A stretch of DNA of 32,000 bases. Source: Promethearchaeum syntrophicum. Its GTDB lineage: Archaea > Asgardarchaeota > Lokiarchaeia > Sigyniarchaeales > Promethearchaeaceae. Under the pieces are notes generated by a model. That model was given only the letters and a program-made list of their open reading frames with translations. It did not search any database and was not told the origin of the DNA. Shown here one piece after another: positions 424 through 17,384 of the stretch. The stretch lies in NCBI RefSeq assembly GCF_008000775.2, contig NZ_CP042905.2, positions 2,700,001 through 2,732,000 on the forward strand, given 5' to 3'. The stretch's first letter is position 1. The number at the start of each line of letters is the position of its first letter. Both the position numbers and the translations under genes were made by a program.

Positions 424-456
424 TGATAATCTTTTCTATTTTAATGAATTAATTAC

Positions 457-1242
457 CTACAGTTTCTGCTTTTTTTCTTTGATTGCTGAAATAAATCCCG
501 ATATTATGAGAAGGATTACAATTGTTAATAATAAGGTCAGGATGATAAAAACAAACACAGCAGCTTGATTTTCAAAGAATATTATCAATACATATGCAGT
601 GAGAGCAGTAACCAGTACTATAACCATTAGAATCTTGAGCCAACCTTTTTTATGTCTAACCTTCTTGCTAAATGAAATTTTATCAGTAACATTAAACCAA
701 GCCAAAAGTATTAGTATAAAGGGGATAGAGTAATGAATAATTTGGTTAAATAAATGTGTAGACCCATAAGCAATGTAGAAATAATAATCAATCAAAGTAA
801 TTAAAGACAAAAATCCTGCAGTAGTTGGTGTAGGCACCCCCACATAACCTTCTAATTCAGTGCAATTAAAATGAGCTAATCGAATAATTGCACCTAAAAT
901 AAAAATAAATGTAGGAATAAACATTACCCATATAGAAAAACCCTTTATTCCCATAGAAGTAGTAGTTTGGGTATAAATATAAAAAGTAATGATTGCGGGT
1001 GCAAACCCAAAAGCAAAAAAATCACTTAAGGAATCTAATTCTTTTCCAAATTCATTGGCTTGATTTAATTTCCGAGCAAGATACCCATCTAATGTATCTG
1101 TAATGATTGCGATAAATATCATAGCCATAGCTAACCGATATGCATGATATTCTGATATGGTAAGAATAATTGCAAAAAACCCACATGCACTTCCGATTAA
1201 GGTTGCGATATCTTTAATTTTTATTATAGAAAGCATACCCAT
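457..1242 (-). CDS. pssA: CDP-alcohol phosphatidyltransferase, phosphatidylserine/archaetidylserine synthase type
   Basis: Exact D-x2-DG-x2-AR-x8-G-x3-D-x3-D signature (DTLDGYLARKLNQANEFGKELDSLSD). The protein is multi-pass hydrophobic, with size and layout typical of PssA-type enzymes. Confidence 0.8.
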   Translation of the reverse strand: MGMLSIIKIKDIATLIGSACGFFAIILTISEYHAYRLAMAMIFIAIITDTLDGYLARKLNQANEFGKELDSLSDFFAFGFAPAIITFYIYTQTTTSMGIKGFSIWVMFIPTFIFILGAIIRLAHFNCTELEGYVGVPTPTTAGFLSLITLIDYYFYIAYGSTHLFNQIIHYSIPFILILLAWFNVTDKISFSKKVRHKKGWLKILMVIVLVTALTAYVLIIFFENQAAVFVFIILTLLLTIVILLIISGFISAIKEKKQKL

Positions 1243-1285
1243 AATTATGAATAATAAATATGAATAATAAAGGTATAGAATAATA

Positions 1286-2641
1286 ATGAATAATAAAGGT
1301 ATAGAATATCAAAAAGCCACGACAAAAAAGATGTTACTTTATGCATCCCCTAGATTAGGAATACAATTTTTTATAAGTATAATTGATTTTGCCCTACTAT
1401 TCTTGTATAAAGATGTTTATAGCTTAAACGGGTTGTTTGTCGGAATAGCCCTTGCACTTGGTAAACTATCTGTCGGATTCAGCCAATTTATTATAGGATG
1501 GGCGAGTGATCATACAAAAACCAGATGGGGAAGGAGAAAACCTTATATTATTATAATGACCCCGATATTATGTATTACTTTTATTATGTTATTGCTCCCA
1601 GGACTTTTTTTAGGTGCGAATCCGCCTGAGAATTCCCTTTTTATTTGGTTAGTCATATTTAACTGCTTATCCCAAGCAGCTTATTCTGTTACTACGCCCT
1701 ATCATGCATGGAATGCTGAACTTTTCCCAGTAGATCAACGCCCGAAAGTTTCCTCGTTTCAAAATATGTTCAATATAATTGGGGCTGTGATTATTACTTT
1801 GTTCACACTGGTAATTTTGACAGACGTAAAAGATAAAATAGAAGCAGATCCTACAGTAATCCCAACAAACTTTCTTGTATCAATACTTTTTTTTGCTTTT
1901 GTACTTATTACAATGAGCTTTTTTAGCACCATTGCACTACCGGTAGAAAATACTCCAGAATATGGTTCTAAAATGAAAGATGATTTGAAGATTATATTGA
2001 AAAATAAAAATTTCCTTTTAGTGACTTTCATGCAAGGATTTTGCTCCTTAGCTATTGCAATGATCTCATCCATACTCGCAAAATTTGCCGATAACGTGGT
2101 CCATTTGGGCAGTGATACTAATATTGTTGTATCCGCTTTAATGGTTATAGCAATGCTATTTGGTCTATTTTGGTTCAAACATAGAATTGAAACCAAAGGA
2201 AAGAAAAAGACACTTATTTTCATATTTCTGTGGGGAATTATAATTCTACCATTTTCATTACTAGGATTTTTCCCATTTGCTCAAAGCATGATTTATGGAA
2301 TTGTTTATATCTCCTTCGTAGCCATAGCAATCGGGGGGTGGTATCTTTTTCCTTATATAATGTATGCTGATATTGCGGATGATGACCAAAAAAAAACTGG
2401 TGAACTCAAAGCGGGGATTTATGCCGGTTTTCCATCCATAATTCTTAATATATTCCAAGCTATTTCTCTATTTTTCACAGGTTGGCTAATCGAATTACCT
2501 TTAATCACCAATGTTCCTGATACCGAACCATTTTCGATAGGACTATTATTAATGGGTCCTATAGGCTCACTATTTCTAATTATTGCTCTATTATTTGGAA
2601 AGAAATTTGTTACCCTCGATTTCTCTTGGGAAAAGCAATAA
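1286..2641 (+). CDS. MFS-type transporter, glycoside-pentoside-hexuronide (GPH) cation symporter-like
   Basis: About 12 hydrophobic segments. The loop motif SDHTKTRWGRRKPYII matches the GPH/MelB-family D-x-t-x-x-x-GRR-P signature. Confidence 0.7.
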   Translation: MNNKGIEYQKATTKKMLLYASPRLGIQFFISIIDFALLFLYKDVYSLNGLFVGIALALGKLSVGFSQFIIGWASDHTKTRWGRRKPYIIIMTPILCITFIMLLLPGLFLGANPPENSLFIWLVIFNCLSQAAYSVTTPYHAWNAELFPVDQRPKVSSFQNMFNIIGAVIITLFTLVILTDVKDKIEADPTVIPTNFLVSILFFAFVLITMSFFSTIALPVENTPEYGSKMKDDLKIILKNKNFLLVTFMQGFCSLAIAMISSILAKFADNVVHLGSDTNIVVSALMVIAMLFGLFWFKHRIETKGKKKTLIFIFLWGIIILPFSLLGFFPFAQSMIYGIVYISFVAIAIGGWYLFPYIMYADIADDDQKKTGELKAGIYAGFPSIILNIFQAISLFFTGWLIELPLITNVPDTEPFSIGLLLMGPIGSLFLIIALLFGKKFVTLDFSWEKQ

Positions 2642-2655
2642 GCTTGATTTTTGAA

Positions 2656-2666
2656 TTTTTTTTTTT
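2656..2666 (+). terminator. oligo-T tract (T11) just after the transporter gene
   Basis: A run of 11 T lies 15 nt after the stop at 2641. Archaeal RNA polymerase terminates at oligo-T. Confidence 0.35.
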
Positions 2667-2716
2667 CGATTTATCTTTAAGAAATATTTACATTACTTAA
2701 TTAGGGGAGAATTAAA

Positions 2717-3643
2717 CTGAGGGACATAAAATTCAATTATCAAAAGAATGGAATATTTGTTAGTTTAGGACTAATAATCCTCTTTTCATCTATAGGAGGA
2801 TATCTTACAAATTCTCAAATTTCCTCTCCCACTTTACATTTTATCTCATCAGCAAGCACCACTCAAATTCTACAAACTCCAATTTTTATCGATGGAACTG
2901 ATCCTAATCATGATTGGGATAATACTGAAAATGTTACTGGAACAGGCACTGTATCAGATCCTTATCAAATTGAGAATTTAATAATTGAAATAGATGGATA
3001 TGAAAATGGGATTTTCATTTCTAATTCAAATAAAACACTTCAAATTAAGAATTGCACAATTCTGCATAAGAATGAGATCTCTTCTGATAATGTTATGTCA
3101 GCAATCGGCATCTATTTTCAAAATTGCACAAATATTCAAGTTACAGATTGCACATTAACTCAGAATTCCTATGGTATGTTATTATTGAATTCTACTAATA
3201 TCCTAATCGAAGAAAGCACCTTCAACAACAACAAAATGACAGGGATTTATTCTAATCATTCTTCAAAAAATCTTTTTCTAAACAACAATATTAAACAAAA
3301 TAATAACACTGGATTTATACTAGAATTTTCAGATTCAAATACTATATCGGTTCACAACATTTCCGAAAATTATTTTTATGGTATCCACCTAAAAAATTCC
3401 AATGAAAATCGCATTCAAGACAGCTATATCCAAGATAATGGAAAAAGAAATGTTTTTACCCAAAATTCAGTGGGTACTCAATATTCTGGAAATACTCGAA
3501 TGGAACAATGGATTGAAGGATTTCTTGTTGAATTAGGTGCCGTTGTGTTTGTAACTGCTTATGTAATCTACAAACATTCTAAAGATGAGAAACGGTATAA
3601 AATAAAAAAAGAATTTAAAAAATTTATTGAAAATGATAACTAA
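2717..3643 (+). CDS. membrane-anchored right-handed parallel beta-helix (PbH1/NosD-like) repeat protein; start codon unresolved
   Basis: The frame is open from 2705. The N-terminal hydrophobic anchor (GIFVSLGLIILFSSIGGYL) is followed by PIFIDGTDPNHDWDNTENVTGTGTVSDPYQIENLII and about 22-aa N/S/T-rich beta-helix repeats. A C-terminal TM (FLVELGAVVFVTAYVIY) and basic tail close the protein. The track only reports it from the internal ATG at 3095. Confidence 0.6.
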   Translation: MRDIKFNYQKNGIFVSLGLIILFSSIGGYLTNSQISSPTLHFISSASTTQILQTPIFIDGTDPNHDWDNTENVTGTGTVSDPYQIENLIIEIDGYENGIFISNSNKTLQIKNCTILHKNEISSDNVMSAIGIYFQNCTNIQVTDCTLTQNSYGMLLLNSTNILIEESTFNNNKMTGIYSNHSSKNLFLNNNIKQNNNTGFILEFSDSNTISVHNISENYFYGIHLKNSNENRIQDSYIQDNGKRNVFTQNSVGTQYSGNTRMEQWIEGFLVELGAVVFVTAYVIYKHSKDEKRYKIKKEFKKFIENDN

Positions 3644-3701
3644 AGAATTTAAACATCCTAATTAATTCTTACATTCCTGTTTTCTTCTGTCCCCACATTC
3701 C
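3638..3701. repeat. left copy of a perfect 64-nt direct repeat (partner 13502-13565)
   Basis: Base-by-base identical to 13502-13565 (offset 9864). It overlaps the stop codon of the beta-helix gene. Confidence 0.95.
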
Positions 3702-3722
3702 TAGCGAGACTGCTAACTCTTT
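3669..3722 (-). pseudogene. orphan 3' stub of a RuBisCO-family gene (17 codons plus stop)
   Basis: The minus-strand reading gives KELAVSLGMWGQKKTGM*, against KELGISLGMWGQKKTGM* at the end of the intact gene at 13533-14870. An in-frame stop lies 10 codons further upstream, so there is no gene body. Confidence 0.75.
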
Positions 3723-3849
3723 AACTAAATTATCGCCAGAGAAGCGGCTTTGTCAGACTTTTTAGGTTTTTCAAAGGGTAAAATTAGCATAAAATATATT
3801 GAAATTTATTATTCATTAATCAACATTAGGTTCAATAAAATCAAAGAAT

Positions 3850-4554
3850 CTAATTATTTCTCTTTTTTCGATTTGTTCTGATTCTCGCTCTCCGCCTTTC
3901 TAATTGTTCCGCTGAATTTCTATCAATATTTTGCCCTTCAAATTGTACACCATTGGGCGGAGATTGATTACCTCTCCTTCTTGGGCGGAGGAACGCATAA
4001 CCACCAACTCCGAGAATAGCAGCACCAATTGGTATCCATAACAAATTTAAATTGCCCTCCTCTTCATCGGGAGGATTGGGGGGAACGGGATCAGGTTCTT
4101 GAGGAAAGGGTTTTGGGGTTATATGTCCCGCATGATATGTTCCCGAGGAAAGCGGATTTATAAAATAAATCTTCATTATGAAATTATACAAATATCTTCC
4201 ATTATGATAAAACAATAAATATTCTTTAGATACTATATAGAACCGTAAACCCTCAAGAATTACTTCAATACCATAAATATCTCCCGATCCACCTAATTTC
4301 TTGATAAAACTAGAACCATTTGTGAGATTCACTATATATGAACATCGGAAAGCAGTGATGTCACGAGAACTATTGATTCTAAATTTAAGGGAGTCATTGA
4401 CATCTTCCATTGTTATGTTAGTATATTCCTCATCGCTTGATTGAACTTGTCGTCGATTTTGTGGGATGTCCTTTGGATTTGGATGAATTACCACCACACA
4501 ACAAATCCCGATTGCGAATATAAGGATCATCGTTTTTTTTTTCATACTAATCAT
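3850..4554 (-). CDS. hypothetical type-I membrane/surface protein
   Basis: It has an N-terminal signal-like segment (MKKKTMILIFAIGICCVVVI), a Pro-rich linker (PFPQEPDPVPPNPPDEEE), a TM (LLWIPIGAAILGVGGYAFL) and an Arg/Lys-rich tail. No recognisable family. Confidence 0.55.
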   Translation of the reverse strand: MISMKKKTMILIFAIGICCVVVIHPNPKDIPQNRRQVQSSDEEYTNITMEDVNDSLKFRINSSRDITAFRCSYIVNLTNGSSFIKKLGGSGDIYGIEVILEGLRFYIVSKEYLLFYHNGRYLYNFIMKIYFINPLSSGTYHAGHITPKPFPQEPDPVPPNPPDEEEGNLNLLWIPIGAAILGVGGYAFLRPRRRGNQSPPNGVQFEGQNIDRNSAEQLERRRARIRTNRKKRNN

Positions 4555-4744
4555 TTTTTATTGGGTTATTTAATATCGAAAAAATTTATTTGATAATATG
4601 AGATCATTTGCAAGAAGAGTACTTTCAAGAATTCTCATTTCGGGAAAATTTCTTAATTTGTTTTTTTGTTCAATTGTTCAATCTTCTAAAAAAATACACG
4701 AATCTTTCTAGACCAATTTAAGAAACAATATTTTTAAACTGGGT

Positions 4745-5131
4745 TTATGACACAATACTCAACATGCAATATCGTTCCTCTATGATATATTCAACCCCTA
4801 TTAACGATAAATCACCCATTCCATGTCCCCACACCCCATATTTTTCCGCATCAGCGTATACCGAATAATATCCCTCATAAATACACTGTGCTAAATCCAA
4901 TCGGGAAAACCCCCCAATAACCTGATACTCGAAAACTGCTCCCTTTTCCAGCGGATATGAAAATTCTATTTTGATCGCTTGTTCGGGTATGATTATTCGG
5001 TTCGGACTGAGAAGGTGATATTTGAGCTCGGGATTTCCGAAATGAATAATGGTCGGATTATAATTATCTTCGGGATCATCATCAAACCACCGAAATTTAA
5101 AGGTTTTAATTCCCTTCTGTTTTTTTACCAT
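4745..5131 (-). CDS. hypothetical protein (128 aa), co-directional and 12 nt downstream of the LRR gene
   Basis: Clean ORF with tight spacing to the upstream LRR gene, which suggests an operon. No domain recognised. Confidence 0.5.
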   Translation of the reverse strand: MVKKQKGIKTFKFRWFDDDPEDNYNPTIIHFGNPELKYHLLSPNRIIIPEQAIKIEFSYPLEKGAVFEYQVIGGFSRLDLAQCIYEGYYSVYADAEKYGVWGHGMGDLSLIGVEYIIEERYCMLSIVS

Positions 5132-5143
5132 TTTTTAATCCAC

Positions 5144-6430
5144 CTATAAGTATATTTTTAGCCCGTTGGGGAGATTATATGTTCTTTTATCCCTTATCAT
5201 CTCTAAAACTGCATCATTAGAAGGGACATTATTCTCCAGGATTTTGATTTCAGAACTACTGGCTTCAAAAACTAATCTTTCGCGTTCATCTTCAGTCAAA
5301 GATGCGGGAGAGGAAATATATTGGGTTGCCAGGGCTTTAGGTGATTTTTCATAGTATTTATAGAGTTTTTCAATATCTGATTGTTCTTCAAAGTAGGTGT
5401 GTTTTTCTCCCTTTTTCGTTAAAAATTCATTCGTTAGTATCAGTCTGGCTTCACTATACATTTTAATGAGATATTTTGGCAAGGTCCTGATGGGATTGCC
5501 TTGGATATTTAATAGACTGAAATTCTCTAAAGTCTTGAAATTTTGAGGAGGGGATGAGAGAAGATTATCATATAAATTAAGCTCAAACAGCTTCTCGAAA
5601 TTGTCAATATACTCAGGGATGTTGGTGAGAAAATTTTTGCCTAAATTGAGAATCTTCAGATTAACGAGATTTCTAAAACTGGTGGGGAGGGTTGTCAGTT
5701 TATTTCTATTCAAATAAAGCCGTTGGAGGCTGGTGATATTGCCAAAATTCTCGGGTAAAGATGTAAGTTGATTATCGCTTACAGCAAGAATCCTAAGGGT
5801 AGATAAATTCCCAATAGTATTCGGCAATGTGTCAAGGTTGTTTTCCGTTAAATTTAGGATTTCAAGATTTTTTAAATTTCCAATACTTTCGGGGACAACG
5901 GTTAGCCGATTTCTTTCTATGTCGAAATCTTCTAGTCTTGTTAAATTTCCGAAATTCTCTGGTAAAGAAAGGATTTTATTTTCATTGAGATTCAGTCTTT
6001 CAAGGAATGCCAAATTTCCCAAAGATTCTGGCAATGTTTTGATCCGATTTTTTCTGAGATATAATCTTTTGAGGTACCTTAGATTTTCAATGTCGTCAGG
6101 GAGGGACATTAACTGATTGTTTGATAAATTGAGGTCGAGCAGATATTTGAGATTCGTAAAATTGTCGGGTAATTGCCGGAGATTGCTATGAAGGAGTTCA
6201 AGGGTGATAATGTGACCTCGGTACACTCTGAATTTTGCATCAAAGGAATGGAATTCCTCTACCGCTTCCGCTTCTTTTTTCGGGATTTTGAGCATTTCAT
6301 CACCCACCGTTATTTTACCCCTTGAACCTTTGAATTTAATCCTACAGATATTATTGAAAACAAGTTGAGTATTTCGATTTTTATTTCCATGATGAAGTAT
6401 TCCATAGAAGTATTTAATAAGCAATTCCAA
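5144..6430 (-). CDS. leucine-rich repeat (LRR) protein with conserved non-LRR N- and C-terminal modules
   Basis: About 11 consecutive 23-aa units of the form LxxLPxxIGNLxxLxxLxLxxNxL. The track start at 6430 is TTG. The ATG at 6295 (MLKIPKKEAEAVEEF...) is an equally plausible start and aligns with the N-terminus of the paralog at 10016. Confidence 0.85.
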   Translation of the reverse strand: MELLIKYFYGILHHGNKNRNTQLVFNNICRIKFKGSRGKITVGDEMLKIPKKEAEAVEEFHSFDAKFRVYRGHIITLELLHSNLRQLPDNFTNLKYLLDLNLSNNQLMSLPDDIENLRYLKRLYLRKNRIKTLPESLGNLAFLERLNLNENKILSLPENFGNLTRLEDFDIERNRLTVVPESIGNLKNLEILNLTENNLDTLPNTIGNLSTLRILAVSDNQLTSLPENFGNITSLQRLYLNRNKLTTLPTSFRNLVNLKILNLGKNFLTNIPEYIDNFEKLFELNLYDNLLSSPPQNFKTLENFSLLNIQGNPIRTLPKYLIKMYSEARLILTNEFLTKKGEKHTYFEEQSDIEKLYKYYEKSPKALATQYISSPASLTEDERERLVFEASSSEIKILENNVPSNDAVLEMIRDKRTYNLPNGLKIYL

Positions 6431-6739
6431 AAATAGAAAAAAAAATATGATCTTACTATATTACAATACCCATCCATACTGGAAAAAATTAAACCCCTTT
6501 TTCAAAATGGTCCCGCAGAATATGATTCTATATATTGGATAAAAAACCAATATCCCGGATTACCATTAGTTGCTGGAGAAATGACTCCTCATGATTATCA
6601 AGTTAAAGATCTTAAAGCTAAAATGATTTCAATTGTAACTTATGTGGAGATTTTAATGAAATGTACAGATAAATTAAATTCTCTGAAATCTAAAATCAGT
6701 GAATGATTAATTTAAATTTTTCTTATTTCCTCCATTTAT

Positions 6740-8175
6740 TTTGGGTTGATTAAAGTAGATTTCTTGCATTTGAACTTGTTTTAAATTTTCTTCTCCACTA
6801 ACCGAAGTTGAGTTTGAATAAATGAGAATTGTCGAAGGGTAGGGCCTCGTTTCCAACTTTTTAACATATTATGTTGTCGCCTCCTTCGAGCTTTCTCAAT
6901 TTGCCATGCATTATAAAGCCAGTATTGAACTGAACGCATTGTTAATTTCCGGGCATTTGTATGTGCATTGGATGGCGGACCAAGTCGATTTATATCCCGA
7001 AAACCAGTCTCAATTTGCCACCGACGATCATATTTTTGACAAATACTTGAAGCCCAACCTTGTTGAGCCTTTTTGCATCTAGGTGGAGGCTTTGTAGTCA
7101 TCATCACCATTATTTCCTTCATTGCTTCAGTTAAATCAATCCTTCTTTGTTTGAAATCCTGTCGAATATCCCGTAACCGCCGACCTTGTCGATTGGTAAA
7201 AATTAACCACACGTGGATCCCTGGCAAGTGATAAAATTTCTTTGGTGCGCCTCGAACGATGTATGATTGAATATAGTGAATATCTTTTTTTAAATAACGT
7301 TCTAAAAGCCGTTTAATTGGCTTCCACTTTCGATAGGGGCCAATATAATGGATCCCACGCGGATTTAATTCGGACAATAATTCATAGGTCGGGAACCATC
7401 GATCACCTATCACAGCTCTAACATTAAACCCATGTTGAATTATTCTATCAATGCAATGAAGGATTTTTGGGACATTTGAGTGCTTTCTTTTAATGAGATG
7501 AATTCCAACAAATAAGCTGGTTCCTTTGCTTTTTATCATCAGACCAAGATAATTTCGTTTACGAGATGTGCCAGGGCCATTATAACCTTTTGTAAGGAAT
7601 GGATTTTGAGGAAATCGCTCTGATCCATAGTACCATTGATCAGTATTATCAATTAACAAGTCAATTTGATGGGAAATAAATCCATTTTGAAGAGCATAAT
7701 TGAGTTGGGCATCAAATATCATATCATTTAATCTATTTAATATCCAAAGTGGGAGTGATTGCCGATATTTGCGTACTTGATCTCCATTAGGGCACTTTCT
7801 TTCCCGCCGTACAAGTTCTCCTAAAAATTGTCTCGGTTGAATTTTCCTGCGACGGGTGGCATTTTCCTTCTGCCAAAGTAATTTATTCAACTCATCAGAA
7901 GCTTCATCTAATGAAAGATCCATGAGGGAATGAAGTATTAATATTTCCCAAAAATCTTCAGCGGAATACTTATATCCTTTTCGTTTTGAGAGATGAGTTT
8001 GGTTGATAATTTCTAGAGCAAGATTTTTTAGCCATGGCAGCCAATAATCATATGGGCATGATTCTTCTGCGGGGTGGAGCGGGAACTCCAATCCGCTTGT
8101 TGTTACAGATTGCATGATTACAAGGAAGAATCGGCTCCTTGTAAATCTTTTATTTCGACAAAAATAAATTCATTG
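6740..8175 (-). mobile_element. insertion sequence around the transposase gene; ends approximate
   Basis: Only an imperfect candidate inverted repeat was found by eye: catttattttgggttgattaaagtagattt near 6742, against the reverse complement of 8135-8170, aatttatttttgtcgaaataaaagattt. No clear target-site duplication was identified. Confidence 0.3.
6781..8115 (-). CDS. DDE transposase, IS4/IS5-superfamily (DDE_Tnp_1-like)
   Basis: The C-terminal YDRRWQIETGFRDINRL matches the Y-x2-R-x3-E signature region of IS4/IS5-type transposases. DRWFPTYELL is typical of the second Asp region. Confidence 0.8.
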   Translation of the reverse strand: MQSVTTSGLEFPLHPAEESCPYDYWLPWLKNLALEIINQTHLSKRKGYKYSAEDFWEILILHSLMDLSLDEASDELNKLLWQKENATRRRKIQPRQFLGELVRRERKCPNGDQVRKYRQSLPLWILNRLNDMIFDAQLNYALQNGFISHQIDLLIDNTDQWYYGSERFPQNPFLTKGYNGPGTSRKRNYLGLMIKSKGTSLFVGIHLIKRKHSNVPKILHCIDRIIQHGFNVRAVIGDRWFPTYELLSELNPRGIHYIGPYRKWKPIKRLLERYLKKDIHYIQSYIVRGAPKKFYHLPGIHVWLIFTNRQGRRLRDIRQDFKQRRIDLTEAMKEIMVMMTTKPPPRCKKAQQGWASSICQKYDRRWQIETGFRDINRLGPPSNAHTNARKLTMRSVQYWLYNAWQIEKARRRRQHNMLKSWKRGPTLRQFSFIQTQLRLVEKKI

Positions 8176-8266
8176 AAAACTGAAAATAGAAAAAAAAGTT
8201 ACAGGATACAAACAATATAAAGAAATAATCACTGCTCTAAATCATATTTACTTATATAATCCACAG

Positions 8267-9946
8267 ATGGCTAAGAATTTAGCGCCATTATTATTACGCG
8301 GGGATATATTAATTGATGGTGAAGGTGATGTTTTTCTAAAATTACTGGATAAAACAAGTGTAAAAGATTTAGATTTTGTATATTATAATGAAATATTTGA
8401 ACATCTATCTTCGAGTAGATCAAGGGAGGATGGAAAAATAGCTGAAAATAATGCTAAATCAGCATTAAAAATAATATCCAATTCTTTAGATTTAGCATTA
8501 TTGGGAATTTATTTAACACAAGACATAACACATCCATCGCATATATATGGAGGGTCAAATTATATTGAAAAATTCCTACATATTATGGATGCATATATAC
8601 ATTACAATATTCCTGGTCAAAGGGAGCGAAATGCAATATTTATGGACTATAATAGAATTAGAAGACTATTAGAAATTATAGAAGATCCCGGTATAGCTAT
8701 GATTAGAGAAAATGAGATGAGTTGTATTGAGGACCTTCTAAAAAGATGTATAGATAATCAATTCGATCAACGTCAAAAAGGGTTTATTGAATTAATTAAA
8801 AGTAAGACTTCTGGAATCAGCGCTTTATATGACAACCTTATCGACGATAAAAATTATGGAGGACATATATACTCACAATATACAAATGATTTTAAAACAT
8901 CAGGAAAAACTCTTTCCTTTATGTCCAAATTATCCGCATCAGATATAGAATGGGAATTTATGAGTCAAATGCACGCCAAAACCTACATAGGTTTTCTGCA
9001 AAAAGATATTACGATGGTTTTCACTCAACTTGGTAACGATTTTACGTTTGTTGGAGGTTCAACTTCTGAACTACTATCAATTATCTCCCAAACGATGTTT
9101 AGAAGACAAATACCAGGAACCGATAAATTCGAATTAATTTATCTTCCACCAGGTCAAATAACAAATGTCGACGGAAATCTTATATCTCCTCGTACTTTAA
9201 TGATCAATAGTCAAGTATTGCTTCCGTTAATGAATAATTTAGGTCATTTCTTTCAAGTTGATTATTCAAAAAATTTTGCAGCTAAAAGAACCAATAGTCC
9301 TCAGATCGATGAAGATGCGGGTCGCGTAGTTTATATAGGTTATATGGGTATGCCCTCTACTTCTTACGTTATTGACAAACTGGAAAAAATCGAAGACATC
9401 CAAGCCCAAGGTGCTGCATTTATTAGTATTATGGGTGATGGAAATATTAGAGCAAAATTTGAATCTGTTCTTGCAAGTAGTCGATTTAGTGGTATGGGGA
9501 CAGTTCTTATTAATAAAAAACCATTCGATTATCTTGAGGAAATATCAAATAATCCCGATACATATCATTTAAGTTATGAACATATTATTGATGATATTAC
9601 ACGTATAGCAGCCGGTTTAAGTGCCCAAAATCCAATTATTTCACAATTAGCATTAAACTCGAAATATAATGCAGAAATTGCAAAAGCTTTCGGTAAGTCA
9701 GTAGATGCTCAAAGGCAAGTTACAATTAATTCAATCATGGCTATGTGGTGGAATAATTTCCGTCATTCTAAAGCACCTCGTGATCCATCACAACCTATTG
9801 GTAATATGTTTAAGGCACAATCCAAAATGTTAAAATTCTTCCTTAAATCGATTAGGAACTACTATAGACCAATTGATCCTAATTATATTCCTCCATGGGT
9901 TATATTAAACGGTTGGAAAACAGAATGGGAAAGCTATTTTAATTAA
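8267..9946 (+). CDS. hypothetical soluble protein (559 aa), orphan
   Basis: Long clean ORF with non-repetitive composition and no TM segments. I recognise no motif. Confidence 0.6.
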   Translation: MAKNLAPLLLRGDILIDGEGDVFLKLLDKTSVKDLDFVYYNEIFEHLSSSRSREDGKIAENNAKSALKIISNSLDLALLGIYLTQDITHPSHIYGGSNYIEKFLHIMDAYIHYNIPGQRERNAIFMDYNRIRRLLEIIEDPGIAMIRENEMSCIEDLLKRCIDNQFDQRQKGFIELIKSKTSGISALYDNLIDDKNYGGHIYSQYTNDFKTSGKTLSFMSKLSASDIEWEFMSQMHAKTYIGFLQKDITMVFTQLGNDFTFVGGSTSELLSIISQTMFRRQIPGTDKFELIYLPPGQITNVDGNLISPRTLMINSQVLLPLMNNLGHFFQVDYSKNFAAKRTNSPQIDEDAGRVVYIGYMGMPSTSYVIDKLEKIEDIQAQGAAFISIMGDGNIRAKFESVLASSRFSGMGTVLINKKPFDYLEEISNNPDTYHLSYEHIIDDITRIAAGLSAQNPIISQLALNSKYNAEIAKAFGKSVDAQRQVTINSIMAMWWNNFRHSKAPRDPSQPIGNMFKAQSKMLKFFLKSIRNYYRPIDPNYIPPWVILNGWKTEWESYFN

Positions 9947-10015
9947 TTTCTAAATTTTTTCATGGTATATGTTTTTATATGCCTTTTTTTATATATATTC
10001 TAAGAATGATTCAAA

Positions 10016-11431
10016 ATGAACGATATTTATAATACACCAGTGATTCACCCAGAACTATTTGTCGAAATTCCTAAAAAAGAGAGATACGTAATTGAATCAT
10101 TTGGAATTACATTTAATCGAATGACAAATTTTCCCCGCTGGAACGATATCAAAATAGATAATGGGCATGTGAGAAAAATTTTACTTTCTTTTCCCATTCA
10201 AGAAAAATTTCAACCCACTTATATGTCCCCCACTCCGCATAAAAAGATCGGAGATCAGACATATTATTATTCAAAACACAATCATCCAGAAAATTTCAAA
10301 GGAATCCCCGAAAATTTCGGAAATCTAGAGTTTCTAGAAGATGTCAAATTTGAATTTGACATTTTTGATACATTACCCGACTCGATTGGAAATTTGAAAA
10401 ACCTAAAAATCCTTAATCTTAGCAATTGTAATCTCACCGGATTACCCGACTCGATTGGAAATTTGAATAACCTAAAAATCCTTAATCTTAGCAATTGTAA
10501 TCTCACCGGATTACCCGACCCGATTGGAAATTTGAATAATCTGACCGAACTAAATTTAGGATCTAATAGTTTGCGATTCCTGCCCAAATCGATTGGAAAT
10601 TTGAAAAAGCTTACTTTACTTGATATAAGACATAATCGATTAGAAACTATTCCCGACTCGATTGGAAAATTGAATAATCTGACCGAACTAAATTTAGGAT
10701 CTAATAACCTAACATTCCTTCCAAAATCGATTGGAAATTTGAAAAATCTTAAATTTTTCCACTTAAATCACTGCAATTTTAAATCCATTCCCCCCCAAAT
10801 ACAATTTCTCACAAATTTAATTGTTCTGGATCTTAGGGCTAACCACTTGACATCTCTTCCAGAATGGATCGGAGATCTAAGAAATATTTCACGTCTCACT
10901 TTAGGATGGAATAATCTTTCTTCCTTGCCAAATTCTTTTGAGAAATTGATAAATTTATCTAATTTATCTATTGGGAATAATTATTTTACCGAACTACCCC
11001 AAGTTCTTAATAAATTCAATCAACTTGAAGCGATTTCAGTGTTGCCCAATCCTTTCAAATCTCTTGAATCCATCAAATATTTCTTTCTTAATCTTGATTT
11101 TACTTCTAGTCTTCACGCATTCATAAATTTATTCCCAGAATCGGAATCTGATAAAAAAATCCCCGATACTGTCTCCCAACTAATTCGCGAAGGAAATGGT
11201 GAAGGTTTGTTCAAATACTACGAAACACCTCTCACTGAAATTTTGGAAAAAATTATATCCGACTCTAAATCCCTTTCTGAACATGAAACCGAGCGACTTA
11301 TTTGGGAAAGCAGCGGTTCCGAAAGAAATATTCTTGAATTGCATCTTCCAAATGGTCATTTTATTTTGGAGCAAATTAACGAACGGTTGAGATTCCATGT
11401 TAAAAAAAATGGCATGCAATTATTTAAGTGA
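10016..11431 (+). CDS. leucine-rich repeat (LRR) protein, paralog of 5144-6430
   Basis: About 11 units of the 23-aa LRR type (LPDSIGNLKNLKILNLSNCNLTG...). It shares the N-terminal IPKKE...F...GH motif and the C-terminal module (LFKYYE...LSEHETERLIWESSGSERNILE) with the other LRR protein. Confidence 0.85.
   Translation: MNDIYNTPVIHPELFVEIPKKERYVIESFGITFNRMTNFPRWNDIKIDNGHVRKILLSFPIQEKFQPTYMSPTPHKKIGDQTYYYSKHNHPENFKGIPENFGNLEFLEDVKFEFDIFDTLPDSIGNLKNLKILNLSNCNLTGLPDSIGNLNNLKILNLSNCNLTGLPDPIGNLNNLTELNLGSNSLRFLPKSIGNLKKLTLLDIRHNRLETIPDSIGKLNNLTELNLGSNNLTFLPKSIGNLKNLKFFHLNHCNFKSIPPQIQFLTNLIVLDLRANHLTSLPEWIGDLRNISRLTLGWNNLSSLPNSFEKLINLSNLSIGNNYFTELPQVLNKFNQLEAISVLPNPFKSLESIKYFFLNLDFTSSLHAFINLFPESESDKKIPDTVSQLIREGNGEGLFKYYETPLTEILEKIISDSKSLSEHETERLIWESSGSERNILELHLPNGHFILEQINERLRFHVKKNGMQLFK
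10373..10510 (+). repeat. tandem duplication of one 69-bp LRR unit (2 copies, 68/69 identical)
   Basis: 10373-10441 and 10442-10510 differ at one base (gaaaaacc against gaataacc, giving K to N). Confidence 0.9.
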
Positions 11432-11788
11432 GTTTGTGTAACTTTGAAAAAAATTTGAGACTATTTTTCATTTTCTTATTTAAAGGATCAAAAAAAAATA
11501 ATACCAAAATATAGACCATCCACTTTTTTTTTCTAAAATGGCAATTTTCGGCGTTTAAACGAATCTGGAGAAAAGATAACACAACCACTTTGTCTAAAAA
11601 AGGTCCAAAAAAAAAGATAACGCAACCACTAATACCCATATTTTTTAGAAGGATTATTTACACTTTTTACCGTAATTCGCACATTTATTGGTGTGATTCA
11701 TGATAATCTTTTTTGTTTTTCCACGATATATTCTTTATTTTATTGTATTAAGAAGGAATCATATAGAAGAGGGGAGAGAGAGGAGGGA

Positions 11789-11945
11789 GGGTAAAAAAAA
11801 TTTTATTTTTTTATTTTCGAATTTTATAAACCCCTTTCTTAATGGAAGTTCATGAATAAAGACAAAATCGAAGCTTCCCAGATGAATCTAAAACGCTTCA
11901 CCTCTGATGATGGAGTAGAAATCGCCCATTATAAACCATCCTAAG
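11789..11945 (+). repeat. copy 1 of a duplicated module of about 155 nt (partner 12989-13146)
   Basis: The layout is a G-run, then an A-run and T-rich stretch, a TATA-like box (11822-11830), an ATG at 11852, and a conserved core caaaatcgaagcttcccagatgaatctaaaac (11863-11894, partner 13067-13098). Confidence 0.8.
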
Positions 11946-12361
11946 TGCGGGAAATATCCCTTAATATCTCACATCCCAATCAAGCAAGGCGGAAACAGGT
12001 GAGTTGGTGAATTAAGTTTTATCTGTTGGAATATTTTTATTTCGAAGTTGTTTTTTCTTTTGGTAAGAAAAAATGAGACAAAAACTCAGGTAAATTTGAG
12101 ACTCTTATTTAAAGAGTGTGCTTTCACCGTCATTCTGCATCTTGAAAAAAAATGAGACTTATAAAAGATAAAGAAAGCAAATTTCATGGATACATTTAAA
12201 AATTCAATTTCTGAAGTTTCAGCCATTTCTATTTAAAGGAAAATTAAAATTTGAGACAAAACACTGAAAAAATTTGAGACTCCTATATAAATGACTCGTT
12301 ATCACTGTCATTCACCATCCCGAAAAAAAATGAGACTCGGAATTCTATTTAAATAATACCA

Positions 12362-12963
12362 AAAGATAATTTTGAAACTCTCTTTTTTCTCTAAAATATA
12401 ATTTTCGCCCTTTAAACAGATTTGGAAGAATCAATATTTTTGACATTTATGATATTTTAGCAAAGATAATTTTGCAACTTAAGCCCAAAAGGCTCCCAAA
12501 CAAAGATAATTTTGCAACTATGTCTAAAAAAGGTCCAGTAAAAGGTCCAGAACCAAAGATAATTTTGCAACTTTGCTTAAAAAAGGTCAGAAATCAAAGA
12601 TAATGTTGAAACTTTGCTTAAAAAAGGTAATACCAAAAGATAAATGTTAAACTCTCTTTTTTCTCTGAAATGTAATTGTTGGCATTTAAATGAAGTTGAC
12701 CAAATCGATACTTTTGACCTTTATGGTGTTTTAGCAAAGATAATTTTGCAACTTTGCCCCAAAAGGCTCCTAAAAAAAGATAAATGTTAAACTATTTTTT
12801 CTATGGACATTTTTTACTGTTATTCCCGCTGATACCAAAAAATAAATTTAGCAAAGTTAATTCTGCAACTTTGTTTCAAAATGCGCCCAAAAAAAGATAA
12901 ATTTGCATCTTTGTCTAAAAAAGGTCCGGTAAAAGGTTCAGAAGTAAAGAAAAAATTGCAACT
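12362..12963 (+). repeat. array of 11 copies of the 18-nt motif AAAGATAATTTTGCAACT (degenerate); three more copies lie outside
   Basis: Copies start at 12362, 12462, 12502, 12555, 12596, 12636, 12736, 12776, 12853, 12893 and 12946. Outliers are at 11572 and 11613, plus one reverse copy at 13160-13177. Spacing is mostly 40-41, 53 or 100 nt, with a higher-order period of 274 nt. Confidence 0.85.
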
Positions 12964-12988
12964 CTCTTTTTTGTATGGGTTTTATGGG

Positions 12989-13146
12989 GGGGATAAAAAA
13001 ATTTTTATTTATTTTTTTTTCCGCTTTTTATATCTGCGATTTTTAATGGTAGTCCATGAAAATTGGCAAAATCGAAGCTTCGCAGATGAATTTAAAACAT
13101 TTCTGATGAAAAGTTAGAAATCACTTATATTTTGAACCCTCTTAAG
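12989..13146 (+). repeat. copy 2 of the duplicated module of about 155 nt
   Basis: It has a G7 run at 12986-12992, a TATA-like box at 13025-13033, an ATG at 13056 and the conserved core at 13067-13098. Confidence 0.8.
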
Positions 13147-13405
13147 ATAGAACAAGACGAGTTGCAGATTTATCTTTTTAAGCTGGGTAATATCTTTTTT
13201 TGGAAACAATTTTATTTTTTAGGATTACAAAACGGGGGAAAAAAATGAGACGTTTATATAAATAGCGCTAAATCAGAGTAACAAAAAATACGATTTCTCA
13301 AAAAAAAATGCGACTCTCCAGACAGGTAATTTTATGCAGTTAAAACAGTTACGCGATCCAAAACCGAACAAAGTATGTTTTTAGATTGGTGAGAATTTGC
13401 ATTGT

Positions 13406-13460
13406 GTCTCATTTTTTTATCAAGTCTCATTTTTTTTATTGCATAAATTCTCATTTTTTT
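13406..13460 (-). repeat. three closely spaced reverse-orientation copies of the A-run+TGAGAC motif
   Basis: gtctcattttttt at 13406-13418, gtctcatttttttt at 13424-13437, and the variant ttctcattttttt at 13448-13460. On the plus strand these read as T7-T8 tracts. Confidence 0.8.
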
Positions 13461-13501
13461 AACGAAGTTACAGTTTGATCAGAAAAAAAAGGTAAACCAA
13501 A

Positions 13502-13565
13502 AACTAAAGAATTTAAACATCCTAATTAATTCTTACATTCCTGTTTTCTTCTGTCCCCACATTCC
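13502..13565. repeat. right copy of the perfect 64-nt direct repeat (partner 3638-3701)
   Basis: It covers the stop and last 10 codons of the RuBisCO-family gene plus the 31 nt downstream of it. Confidence 0.95.
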
Positions 13566-14870
13566 GAGGGAAATCCCTAACTCTTTATGATCTTTTGCAT
13601 AAGTTTTTACAGGTATTCCTTCCATTGCAGCAGTAATCGCTTGTCTAAATGCAATTGCTCCGGCTGTTGGTCCATCTTGGTGACTATGAATTCCGCCACC
13701 TGCTCCGAGCATGATATTAAATCCTAAATCTCTTGTAGCATATTCAACCATACCAGGCGTAATCCCCCCAGAAGGCATTGGCATCATCGGTTTTATGTGA
13801 GGTAGAGGATAAACACATTCCATTACGTTCTGAATAAATCGTTCGGGAACAACTGGTGCTTTTCCATATGGTGCTGGTAAAACTATTATATCGCAACCCA
13901 CTAATCGAGGCAATTTTCCAAGGGTTAACTTTGATGTTACGCCAGTGAAAGGATCTTCGTACCACACACCAGAAAAATCCATGTGGCCTTGAATTGGAAG
14001 TTTTACGCTCGGATCCTCAGCAACTTGTTGAACCGCGGTTAGTCCTTGTGGTAGATAATTAATTAACATCCCATTTCCTCCATGTTTTTGTACTACATCA
14101 ATATTTCTAAAAATCCTTGGAGTATTATCTGTTACATTAACCATATAAATAGTTTTTTCCCCAGTTTCTTCTTTAGCTTTATCAAGTCCCTCCATAACCT
14201 TGGTTACTCGATCTTCCAAAGTATTGAATTTCTGGTCTGCAATTAATTCATCATCTTTTACAACATCAACTCCACCAAGGGCTACTTTATAAGCTAATTC
14301 TCCTGCTACTTCAGCAGTATGACCTGTACATGGTTTAATCATGTTATTAAGGAGTGGTCGTTTTTCAACACCGAGGTATTTGCGAACCCCTTCAATTCCA
14401 AATCGTGGACCTGGCATAGTAGCGAGAATGTCTTTTGGAAACCACATATCCAGAAGTTTAATTTTTCCACCCATACTAATATTTCCAATAAGAGCAGTAA
14501 AAAGCAGGGCAAAATTCAATTTCCCTTCAGTGTTCACAAGATTAATTTTTGGCCATGCGATTTGCATAACATAATCTCGATATTCAATAGTTTTTGGAAG
14601 TTCATATTCCCAATTTGGTAATTCATGACAACCAATTAATTTCGCAATATGATTTTTACGGACTTCAGCAGTTTCAGCAGGAACTCTTATCCAAGTTCCA
14701 GTGCTTTGTTCAACACCAGCGAATTGCCCCATGGCTAAACCCGATTGTTTTTTACCCAATCGAGTAAAAAAGGTTCCGATAACGTAATCTTCCAACTCTA
14801 AACCCTCTTTGATTCCCCATGGTTGGGTTAGTATATCTTCAAAATGTGCTAATGGCATTTTTTTTTTCAC
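13533..14870 (-). CDS. RuBisCO large-subunit family protein; active-site substitutions point to a RuBisCO-like protein (form IV-like) rather than a carboxylase
   Basis: Family motifs are present: EQSTGTW, GNISMGG, GPRFGIEGVRK, GGVDVVKDDE, PSGGITPG, GAGGGIHSHQDGPTAGAIAFRQA. IKPCTG replaces IKPKxG, GHMDFSG replaces HxHRAxHA, and DIIVLPAPYGK replaces DxxHxGTxxGK. The track start at 14870 is GTG; ATG at 14858 is an alternative start. Confidence 0.85.
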   Translation of the reverse strand: MKKKMPLAHFEDILTQPWGIKEGLELEDYVIGTFFTRLGKKQSGLAMGQFAGVEQSTGTWIRVPAETAEVRKNHIAKLIGCHELPNWEYELPKTIEYRDYVMQIAWPKINLVNTEGKLNFALLFTALIGNISMGGKIKLLDMWFPKDILATMPGPRFGIEGVRKYLGVEKRPLLNNMIKPCTGHTAEVAGELAYKVALGGVDVVKDDELIADQKFNTLEDRVTKVMEGLDKAKEETGEKTIYMVNVTDNTPRIFRNIDVVQKHGGNGMLINYLPQGLTAVQQVAEDPSVKLPIQGHMDFSGVWYEDPFTGVTSKLTLGKLPRLVGCDIIVLPAPYGKAPVVPERFIQNVMECVYPLPHIKPMMPMPSGGITPGMVEYATRDLGFNIMLGAGGGIHSHQDGPTAGAIAFRQAITAAMEGIPVKTYAKDHKELGISLGMWGQKKTGM

Positions 14871-15254
14871 TTTTATTATTTTTCAATATCTGTCTTATGT
14901 ATAAAAAAATAAATTGAATCTAAATACAACTCTAAGACAATATACGTTAAATAAAACAAGAAGATTATAAATATAAATAGATTTAGTAAAATTCTAAGAA
15001 ATTGGGAAAGTCAAAATTAATCAAAATTCAAAAATGGTTTCAAATCTGTCAGAATTTGCTTTAAACTTTTTACATTAGCGTATTAATATGTATAAAAACG
15101 GGATATTTCATATAATTGAATTATTACTTTTATCGGAATTCGTAAGAGAAGATTTAGCGTGGTATGCAAAAGTCTATAGGTTTTTAGTGATTCTCTAAAC
15201 TTGATATACTATTTCATAAAACAAAAATATAATAATTATTTGAAGGTGAGAACA

Positions 15255-15542
15255 ATGGCAAGAAAAATAAAATGGCAAGGTGAGAAATTAAGATTGGTTA
15301 AACGCCATTTTGTAAATATTGGGGGAATGACAGTTCTTTTAATTGATGAAACAAACTTTCCTCATCTAATTGTTAGTTTAAATCCAAAAAACTACATCCT
15401 TGAGCCCAACGAAATAATTGTTAAAGATTTTGGAGATAATCATGGTATTAAGGATGTTTTAATTTCTGAGAAATATCTAATCCCAACAGGAAAATGGGTT
15501 GAAATAAAAAATGAATTATGTGAAATTTGTAAGGTTCTTTAA
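15255..15542 (+). CDS. hypothetical small protein (95 aa)
   Basis: The ATG at 15255 is preceded by GGTGA 6 nt upstream. The track start at 15201 is an upstream TTG. No domain recognised. Confidence 0.45.
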   Translation: MARKIKWQGEKLRLVKRHFVNIGGMTVLLIDETNFPHLIVSLNPKNYILEPNEIIVKDFGDNHGIKDVLISEKYLIPTGKWVEIKNELCEICKVL

Positions 15543-15815
15543 TTTATTTTAACGTCCTTGCTCATTTTTGAATTTATAAAACTTTTTTAGAAATAAGAAT
15601 TTTCTGAACAAATTTATATTTTTTTAATTCATAAAAGGTGCAATTCTGGTTATTTTTAAGTTAATACATATTCTACAATCTTTGTTTTCAATTCTGGACA
15701 AATATGATTAGAAAATTAGTATTCTGAGGAACATATGTGAAAAGTAGGGAGAAACATTTAATAAGCTAGGCAATGTGAAGATTATTAAGGAAATAAATCA
15801 CAAGAAGGTTTGTAT

Positions 15816-17384
15816 ATGTCAAATAAATATATTTTATCTTATGATCACGGTACATCAGGAATGAAAACGGCAATAATATCTACACAAGGAGAAATAATAG
15901 GTTTTAATGTAGAAGAATACGAATTATTCCATTATGAACAAGGATGTGCTGAGCAAGACCCAAATGATTGGTGGAACTCCCTGATTAAAACTACTCAGGC
16001 ATTGCTCTCGCAAAATTTAGTACCAATTGAAGATATCGTCGCGATATGTAGCTCAAATCAGATGGATGGCACGATTCCCATAGATAAAGAGGGAAATAAT
16101 TTATATAATTGTATAAGTTGGATGGATACTCGAGGGGCTACAGCCGTTCGCGAACTCTGTGGTGGGCCAGTTGCAGAATATAACCCATTTAAGCTTATCA
16201 AATTTCTTAGAAAAACAGGAGCAGCTCCAGGGTTGAGTGGAAAAGATATTCTCGGTCATATTTTATGGTTAAAAGATGCTCATCCTGAAATTTATAAAAA
16301 AACGTGGAAATTTATGGACTGTAAAGATTATCTAAATTTTCGATTAACAGGGAAAGTAGCCACATCTTATGATTGCGCAGTTTTAACATTCCTACTTAAT
16401 ACTCAAGATATTAATAATCTTTATTATGATGAAAAATTGCTTGAAATGGTAAATATTCCCCGAGAAAAATTTCCAGATCCTTACCCCTCTACCCATATTT
16501 TAGGAACTCTAACGGAAGAAGTAGCTGAAACGTTAGGATTAGCGCCATCAACAAAAGTTATAATAGGTGCAGGGGATATGGGTTCAGCTCAGGTCGGTTC
16601 GGGAGCAATTGAATATAATCAAGCACATATTTCAATCGGAAGTTCATCTTGGGTCATGACACATTCGAAAAAGCGAAAAATCGATATTATTCATACTATT
16701 CCCTCCTTACCTGCTGCAATTCCGGGAAGATATATATCTTTTGGTGAACAAGAAAGTGCAGGTATTAATTTATCATGGCTAAGAGATAATATTTTGTATC
16801 ACAAAGATGAATTATTACGAGACGAACAAAAATCGGATGTTTATAAGATATTTGATAGTCTAGTTGAACAAACCGAAGCGGGATCAAAAAAATTAATTTT
16901 TACTCCATGGCTTTGGGGAGAACGTTGTCCGATTGAGGATCACACCATTAGAGGAGGTTTGCATAATGTATCGCTAGAAATTGAGCGAAAACATCTATTG
17001 AGAGCTATTTACGAAGGAGTAGCATATAACTCTAGATGGGTTTTCGAACCTTTAACCAAAATGGTACACAATAGATTGGATCCTATCGTATTAATTGGGG
17101 GAGGTGCAATTTCAGATATTTGGTGTCAAATTTACGCCGATGTTTTAGATCGAACAGTAAAGCAACACGCTCATCCAAAAGAAGGTGTTTGTATAGGAGC
17201 TGCTTTAATTGCATCTGTAGCTTTGGAATATATTACATGGGATCAAATTCCGGATCTGATAAAATACAAAAAGGAATATAAGCCAAATCCTGCAAATCGT
17301 GAGATTTATGATGAATTATTTGCGGAATATAAAGCGATCTATAAAAACAATAAAAAAATGTATCGCAGATTGAACCATTTCTAA
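15816..17384 (+). CDS. FGGY-family carbohydrate kinase (xylulokinase/ribulokinase-like)
   Basis: The N-terminal ILSYDHGTSGMKTAII...EQDPNDWW and the overall length are typical of FGGY kinases. The ATG at 15816 is preferred over the TTG at 15810. Confidence 0.85.
   Translation: MSNKYILSYDHGTSGMKTAIISTQGEIIGFNVEEYELFHYEQGCAEQDPNDWWNSLIKTTQALLSQNLVPIEDIVAICSSNQMDGTIPIDKEGNNLYNCISWMDTRGATAVRELCGGPVAEYNPFKLIKFLRKTGAAPGLSGKDILGHILWLKDAHPEIYKKTWKFMDCKDYLNFRLTGKVATSYDCAVLTFLLNTQDINNLYYDEKLLEMVNIPREKFPDPYPSTHILGTLTEEVAETLGLAPSTKVIIGAGDMGSAQVGSGAIEYNQAHISIGSSSWVMTHSKKRKIDIIHTIPSLPAAIPGRYISFGEQESAGINLSWLRDNILYHKDELLRDEQKSDVYKIFDSLVEQTEAGSKKLIFTPWLWGERCPIEDHTIRGGLHNVSLEIERKHLLRAIYEGVAYNSRWVFEPLTKMVHNRLDPIVLIGGGAISDIWCQIYADVLDRTVKQHAHPKEGVCIGAALIASVALEYITWDQIPDLIKYKKEYKPNPANREIYDELFAEYKAIYKNNKKMYRRLNHF

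Follow-up and report, generated by a model that had tools for sequence, protein, structure and literature searches.

MITEs (miniature inverted-repeat transposable elements) typically measure tens to a few hundred base pairs and combine terminal inverted repeats and a target-site duplication with no coding capacity for a transposase. Pneumococcal BOX elements are modular, with a variable number of internal tandem units. Transposons of the Tn7, Mu and Tn5053/Tn402 type, families that are to our knowledge essentially bacterial, have TG...CA tips, 5-bp target duplications and multiple subterminal transposase-binding repeats. Iteron plasmid origins place direct repeats, for example 17-22-bp iterons, beside an AT-rich region, and the methanogen plasmid pURB500 has repeat-rich regions without open reading frames (ORFs). 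Archaeal integrated elements whose target gene has its 3' end duplicated are described in Thaumarchaeota as integrated mobile genetic elements (PMC6563490) and in Asgard archaea (PMC11529989). Here we analyzed 32,000 nucleotides (nt) of the Asgard archaeon Promethearchaeum syntrophicum MK-D1 (NCBI RefSeq assembly GCF_008000775.2, contig NZ_CP042905.2, positions 2,700,001 to 2,732,000 of the forward strand), a stretch that we call the window and number from its first letter. Positions 11437-13472 hold an ORF-less field of nested repeats, which we tentatively read, with a probability of roughly 0.45, as a discrete non-autonomous transposon-like insertion whose body is made of reiterated end-proximal binding-site and promoter modules. 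The field is nested in a larger island, specific to the strain, that has the 3' end of a RuBisCO-like gene as its integration site.

A preliminary description, made from the sequence letters, had pointed to a 2.1-kb gene-free repeat region here and offered it as a candidate replication origin or a battery of small transcription units. The gene-free region is real: between the stop of a leucine-rich-repeat (LRR) gene at 11431 and that of the RuBisCO-like gene at 13533, no ORF in 11432-13532 exceeds 79 aa. The other seemingly ORF-free stretch, at 29.9-32 kb, is a long ORF running past the window end. The limits of the field are marked by the following features.

11437 to 13472, plus strand: ORF-less, repeat-filled element of 2,036 bp
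11432 to 11436, no strand: left flanking direct repeat GTTTG, directly 3' of the LRR stop codon (11429-11431)
13473 to 13477, no strand: right flanking direct repeat GTTTG
11437 to 11468, plus strand: left terminal inverted repeat, TGTAACTTTGAAAAAAATTTGAGACTATTTTT
13441 to 13472, minus strand: right terminal inverted repeat, whose reverse complement is TGTAACTTCGTTAAAAAAATGAGAATTTATGC

TGTAACTT opens the element at 11437, 5 nt past the stop codon of the LRR gene, and AAGTTACA closes it at 13472, 29 nt short of the att-like repeat at the island's right edge. Its terminal inverted repeat is imperfect and about 30 nt long, of the form TGTAACTTyG..A7..TGAGA..ATTT (TGTAACTTTGAAAAAAATTTGAGACTATTT versus TGTAACTTCGTTAAAAAAATGAGAATTTAT). 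Aligned in inverted orientation, the terminal 32 nt score 15, against 3.55 ± 2.05 for random forward/reverse pairs drawn from the field, and the fraction of these within-region null pairs that score as high is 0.0004. Of 20,000 boundary-anchored simulations, 21 produced an exact 8-bp inverted repeat with a 5-nt flanking repeat where the ORF-free interval begins and ends. Removal of the element together with one GTTTG leaves TGA-GTTTG-ATCAGAAAAAAAAGGTAAACCAAAA followed by the att-like repeat, a compact 27-nt spacer like the other spacers of this genome. The 8-mer TGTAACTT occurs six times in the window (at 3138, 6634, 8196, 9717, 11437 and 13465; 1.1 expected), and extended mutual similarity is seen between the sites at 11437 and 13465 only. 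The preliminary description included neither the terminal inverted repeat nor the 5-nt flanking duplication, nor the 86-nt att-like repeats of the island.

Direct reading and repeat analysis recovered all four repeat layers that had been described at 11440-13500. The 18-nt motif AAAGATAATTTTGCAACT, or iteron, has four exact copies and ten with up to three mismatches, against 0.32 expected, and this entire set lies at 12362-13177; with degenerate left-hand variants counted there are about 15 forward copies and one clear reverse copy, which makes the earlier figure of 14 a fair one. The count of 12 for the second motif, an A-run followed by TGAGAC, was exact, with nine forward copies and three reverse ones at the right end (13406-13460); at up to one mismatch it has 11 copies versus 1.8 expected and none outside the region. 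Neither motif was found in the 32-kb window outside 11440-13500. The unit first put at about 70 nt is 68 nt long and present twice (12092-12159 and 12270-12337, 78% identity). Likewise, the two larger repeats, first put at about 150 and 155 nt, were confirmed as a 168-nt unit termed U (at 12354 and 12628, 82% identity, with the partial third copy at 11491-11569) and a 165-nt module termed D4 (11785-11945 and 12987-13146, 73% identity). The body of the field is a set of overlapping duplications at 59-83% identity, among them nested segmental and tandem ones diverged to 70-83% identity, and its components are as follows.

11447 to 13314, plus strand: nine forward copies of A-run+TG[A/C]GAC, starting at 11447, 12068, 12092, 12145, 12246, 12267, 12323, 13239 and 13300
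13406 to 13460, minus strand: three reverse copies of A-run+TGAGA[C/A], at most 70 nt from the right tip, with spacings of 18 and 24 nt
11507 to 11634, plus strand: short-version iteron block, AAATATAG.., AAAGATAACACAACCACT, AAAGATAACGCAACCACT
12362 to 12967, plus strand: expanded iteron array, in which CAAAGATAATTTTGCAACTTTG recurs about 11 times, with YYYAAAAAAGG(T/C)CC after every copy
13156 to 13177, minus strand: single clear reverse iteron, from a motif scan
12092 to 12337, plus strand: the two 68-nt units, each made of motif, TATA-like box, about 35 nt and motif
11771 to 11945, plus strand: module D4a, with G-string 11771-11791, AT-only tract 11792-11817, TATA-like box 11822-11829 and a 30-codon mini-ORF at 11852-11944
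12977 to 13146, plus strand: module D4b, with G-string 12977-12992, AT-only tract 12993-13020, TATA-like box 13026-13033 and a truncated mini-ORF at 13056-13106

These internal repeats are related to the ends. A-run+TGAGAC is the inner half of the terminal repeat, to which its outermost reverse copy belongs, and the 3' half of the iteron with the next A-run (TGCAACTTTG-N3-A6; TG[C/A]AACTTTG-N3-A6) is similar to the left end in its outer half. Both motif families run almost wholly forward in the left and centre of the field and are reversed at the right end alone. Four 18-mers are kept perfectly inside duplicates that are about 18% diverged elsewhere; together with the strict orientation bias of both families, this suggests constraint or a directional origin. 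A TATA-like box (TATTTAAA, TATATAAA or TATAAAAG) follows six of the nine forward A-run+TGAGAC copies within 1-15 nt (boxes at 11477, 12106, 12160, 12284, 12346 and 13254), and these boxes are similar to those 5' of genes in the window. We also noted that the three reverse copies, with their spacings of 18 and 24 nt, share one frame of a 40-codon minus-strand ORF at 13332-13454 (MRIYAIKKMRLDKKMRH...), a coincidence, probably, with a chance of about 1 in 9.

In the proposed scenario, the element would have arrived through cut-and-paste transposition, with the target cut at a 5-bp stagger, mobilized in trans by a transposase encoded elsewhere. Its internal arrays would be end-proximal modules, each a protein-binding site with a promoter, reiterated by unequal recombination or slippage. 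Such arrays would still bind the cognate end-binding protein and, because of the dense oligo-T runs on both strands, could fire very short transcripts only. The element would have no replication function for the chromosome.

The comparison with MITEs and other non-autonomous derivatives of insertion sequences (IS) is close in several respects: the field lacks a transposase gene, is AT-rich, has terminal inverted repeats and a short flanking duplication, lies in an intergenic position directly 3' of a stop codon, and contains internal modules in variable copy number. It differs from them in that one copy is known, in that its ends are unlike those of the only IS in the window, and in that reiterated end-like motifs and TATA-like boxes make up most of its interior. 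With Tn7, Mu and Tn5053/Tn402 it shares TGT...ACA tips (TGTAACTT...AAGTTACA), a 5-nt flanking duplication (GTTTG), asymmetric ends, and a repeated end motif of about 20 nt with three close inverted copies at one end. In contrast to these transposons, its forward copies extend throughout the body, and Pfam scans of the window, which covered ORFs of at least 80 aa not overlapping a longer ORF, detected no TnsB/MuA-type DDE transposase with an AAA+ partner.

Several observations weigh against a transposon-like insertion. At 2,036 bp, the field is far above the usual size of MITEs, under about 600 bp. The forward motif copies fill the interior and do not cluster at the left tip: one A-run+TGAGAC copy lies within 600 nt of that tip and eight more are interior, whereas the right tip has three in its last 70 nt. 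A comparison with the ISH3-like IS of the island revealed no ends in common with an autonomous IS, and the ends that go with the window's sole transposase, A[T/G]CAGTGA, are different. By chance alone, moreover, the generic signature is frequent in such AT-rich DNA: an 8-bp inverted repeat and 5-bp flanks within 5 kb are found 19 times in the window, versus about 16 expected from Markov simulations. We therefore dropped the inverted repeat and flanking repeat as stand-alone proof; the terminal signature is notable because of its position at the interval limits and its 30-nt extent, and for nothing else. Finally, no further copy of the element, of its ends or of its modules turned up in 118 loci, IMG/VR, JGI metagenomes and PLSDB, scans to which the MK-D1 genome itself did not belong. 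IMG/VR was scanned with the 18-mer, the D4 core, the motif plus TATA-like box and a terminal-repeat pattern, the JGI metagenomes with a two-iteron pattern and PLSDB with the whole element; on inspection, these three collections gave single chance matches only. A search of the literature on Asgard origins, promoters or MITEs returned nothing bearing on the locus, and a full-text search found no paper joining Asgard archaea with miniature inverted-repeat transposable elements.

Neither coding nor RNA signals are present in the field. Six-frame segments gave no match to the window or to 80 related loci, and a six-frame chimeric search against 5.8 billion proteins gave none at E ≤ 10, so that we rejected an origin as pseudogene debris. 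Rfam reported no family at gathering thresholds and nothing useful at permissive ones, and ARAGORN found no tRNA. No conserved RNA fold was detected, with z-scores from -2.1 to +0.8 and folds not common to the paralogous copies. When inspected, the D4 module did not bear out a reading as a C/D box.

The surrounding island is bounded by an 86-nt direct repeat (93% identity, spacing 9864).

3724 to 13501, no strand: strain-specific island of about 9.86 kb, absent from the congeneric metagenome-assembled genome (MAG) CSMAG_2442
3638 to 3723, no strand: left 86-nt direct repeat, in which the final 55 nt of the RuBisCO-like gene and its 31-nt downstream spacer are present as a displaced copy
13502 to 13587, no strand: right 86-nt direct repeat, which gives the RuBisCO-like gene (13533-14870, minus strand) its functional 3' end

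In Promethearchaeum sp. MAG CSMAG_2442, the sequences matching window positions 1-3723 and 13500-17384 are contiguous, an empty site at which a beta-helix gene and the RuBisCO-like gene converge 24 bp apart; positions 3724-13501 of the window are therefore an insertion. At this site the congener MAG CSMAG_2396 has another island, of about 6 kb, with a 65-nt repeat of 98.5% identity on either side (8667-8731 and 14685-14749 in the numbering of that locus). Judged from these loci, the 3' end of the RuBisCO-like gene is a recurrent integration site in Promethearchaeum. Its protein has identities of 92% and 89% with its counterparts in two congeneric MAGs. The displaced left copy encodes A-V, as in MAG CSMAG_2442, and the functional gene encodes G-I, a residue pattern that fits a site-specific integration that would have brought its own copy of the target. 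The island resembles the described archaeal integrated elements in its target-duplicating direct repeats, with an 86-nt repeat restoring the 3' end of the RuBisCO-like gene, and in the empty site in one congener and the other island in another. It differs from them in that its target is a protein-coding rather than a tRNA gene and in that an integrase was detected in neither island; Pfam, PHROGs and NCBIfam found no integrase or recombinase in the island of the window.

The island holds two ORFs of no assigned family, two LRR genes, the ISH3-like IS, a gene for a 559-aa orphan protein and the repeat field. PADLOC gave no match for its proteins. LRR genes are present in both islands; the two in the window (5144-6430, minus strand, and 10016-11431, plus strand) are paralogous and inverted relative to each other, and the second, in which six LRR units of 69 nt (23 aa) stand in tandem, is a point where a short-read assembly of the culture breaks, with a contig end at 10429. 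Outside the island, in the divergent promoter spacer between genes for a CDP-alcohol phosphatidyltransferase and an MFS transporter, a direct repeat with units of about 20 nt (tatacctttattattcat...) is arranged in tandem at 1243-1285.

The IS of the island has the following position.

6695 to 8236, minus strand: ISH3-like IS of 1,542 bp, with its transposase gene at 6781-8115

We placed its ends by comparison with four homologous IS copies. They are inverted A[T/G]CAGTGA sequences, and an intact 5-nt target duplication, CTAAA, is present at 6690-6694 and 8237-8241; members of the ISH3 family have CRGT termini and 5-bp direct repeats (PMC2266710). Among 59 matches, most of them metagenome contigs, all homologues with an assigned organism are from Promethearchaeota (85% identity in Lokiarchaeum ossiferum). 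The intact duplication indicates that transposition has been active in the same island. Copies of TGTAACTT flanking the transposase gene (6634, plus strand, and 8196, minus strand) had suggested that the field shares its termini with this IS. We dropped this link, since the IS ends at 6695 and 8236 and the TGTAACTT copies are thus internal to it or outside it; a blastn-short comparison of the IS ends with the field gave nothing convincing. The ISH3-like IS is a separate element and not the partner of the field.

We weighed several other explanations, of which three, an origin or centromere remnant, transcription units and satellite DNA, are compatible with a mobile origin. The first holds that the field is functionless satellite-like DNA, an island spacer expanded by slippage and unequal recombination, with the terminal inverted repeat and GTTTG as by-products of the same repeat families. 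We consider this unlikely, though worth taking seriously. It is favored by the overlapping nested duplications at 59-83% identity, by the lack of a homologue in any database or locus set scanned, and by the frequency with which the generic signature of inverted and flanking repeats arises by chance. It is also in line with the short-read assembly of the culture, which reproduces the window exactly from 22583 to 13193 and stops inside the field. It does not, however, account well for a terminal repeat that outscores 99.96% of within-region pairs and falls exactly where the ORF-free interval starts and stops (simulated chance about 1e-3), nor for two motif families that each keep so strictly to their orientations and four perfect 18-mers in duplicates about 18% diverged.

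A remnant of an iteron-type origin and/or partition site, left by a plasmid-like element integrated at the RuBisCO 3' end, is an improbable reading, albeit one with real points in its favor. Under it, phased 41/53-nt iterons would bind an initiator or a centromere-binding protein beside AT-only unwinding tracts, and the Rep/Par genes would be lost or act in trans. Like iteron plasmid origins and pURB500, the field has direct 18-22-nt repeats running one way, a few inverted ones at one flank and adjoining AT-only tracts, and it contains the at least three direct 17-22-bp repeats in one orientation at helical-turn spacing by which iteron plasmids are recognized. At least ten 18-22-nt repeats share one orientation, and in the expanded array, where the two U units are interleaved, they recur with a period of about 40, 41 or 53 nt, near whole helical turns. 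Of the five AT-only tracts of at least 20 nt in the window, two (11792-11817 and 12993-13020, 26-28 nt) lie just past iteron blocks, each after one of the G-strings that the preliminary description had reported, in a genome that is itself 30% GC. The site also lies within an att-flanked island. Against this, some spacings, of 76 or 100 nt, are out of helical phase, and the 2-kb field far exceeds known iteron origins, being 4-10 times longer. Unlike such origins, it is integrated, bounded by inverted repeats, and holds two further repeat families and promoter-like boxes. It gave no match among PLSDB plasmids, and searches of the island and the remaining window detected neither a Rep or Orc1/Cdc6 gene nor one for a primase, a helicase, ParA/B or an integrase. 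The 559-aa orphan (gene at 8267-9946) gives a replication function no support. Identical (100%) to DSAG12_02968 of P. syntrophicum MK-D1, it has about ten distant homologues among 1.84 billion representatives, and the C-terminal half (residues ~270-559) of its AlphaFold model is confident. It gave no match in Pfam, in PDB sequence and profile searches or in Foldseek, and no Rep-like sequence or fold was seen.

Just as improbable, in our view, is a battery of short transcription units, in which each A-run+TGAGAC with its TATA box would serve as a promoter under the control of a single element-specific factor, and the small RNAs or micro-ORFs driven by it would end at the dense oligo-T runs. The TATA-like boxes behind six of the nine forward motif copies speak for it. 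In both D4a and D4b, moreover, the centre of the TATA-like box lies 26.5 nt 5' of an ATG, the geometry of a leaderless transcript, and the conserved mini-ORF core of the two copies has two differences, both synonymous, one copy being truncated by a 5-nt deletion. Homopolymer A/T runs of at least 6 are enriched about 4-fold on both strands, with 16 such T runs on the plus strand. On the other hand, several predicted start sites are just 10-25 nt 5' of a T-run, TATA-like strings are common in 30% GC DNA, the mini-ORFs diverge in length and sequence past M-R-L, and the iteron period is not a multiple of 3. Equally unfavorable are the lack of an Rfam family, the fold z-scores near 0 and the folds that differ between duplicate copies.

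A composite of these readings, an ORF-less Asgard mobile element with an iteron-type origin or centromere and factor-controlled mini-promoters, that is, a gene-less satellite replicon or transposon dependent on proteins supplied in trans, seems to us more doubtful still.

A chromosomal replication origin with elements like the archaeal origin recognition box (ORB) is very improbable. The G-strings beside AT tracts and the many repeats are what one might expect of it, and the preliminary description had noted a weak likeness of ATGTTGAAACT to the ORB core. With up to two mismatches, the ORB pattern TCCANTGGAAAC, a consensus from other archaea (Asgard ORBs being uncharacterized), occurs 13 times in the window versus 12 expected and never at 11440-13500. 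In agreement with the earlier remark, Pfam scans found no orc1/cdc6 gene in the 32 kb, and over these 32 kb the local cumulative skew has no extremum at the field. The region is absent from MAG CSMAG_2442, where the flanking genes are 24 bp apart, and replaced by other DNA in MAG CSMAG_2396. Altogether, a locus that is not conserved, a window without an initiator gene and a field without an ORB-like sequence effectively rule out a chromosomal origin. Of the earlier interpretation, the iteron-like field in one orientation with inverted copies at one flank stands, and the archaeal-ORB origin does not.

A degenerate CRISPR-like array can be dismissed: despite iteron ends of the form CAAAG...CTTTG and a sub-threshold Rfam match between CRISPR-DR26 and the minus strand of a single iteron (23 bits versus a gathering score of 39, E = 0.59), it is contradicted by "spacers" of 17-31 nt that are mutually similar and themselves form a repeat family (YYYAAAAAAGGTCC), and Pfam scans found no cas genes among the window ORFs.

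For predictions based on skew or motifs, the practical consequence is that a replication origin should not be assigned to this locus. P. syntrophicum MK-D1 is among the very few cultured Asgard archaea, and its mobile DNA has barely been described. If the element is mobile, it would be a first example of a large gene-less transposon-like element in the lineage, and its terminal motif would provide a handle for finding the transposase responsible.

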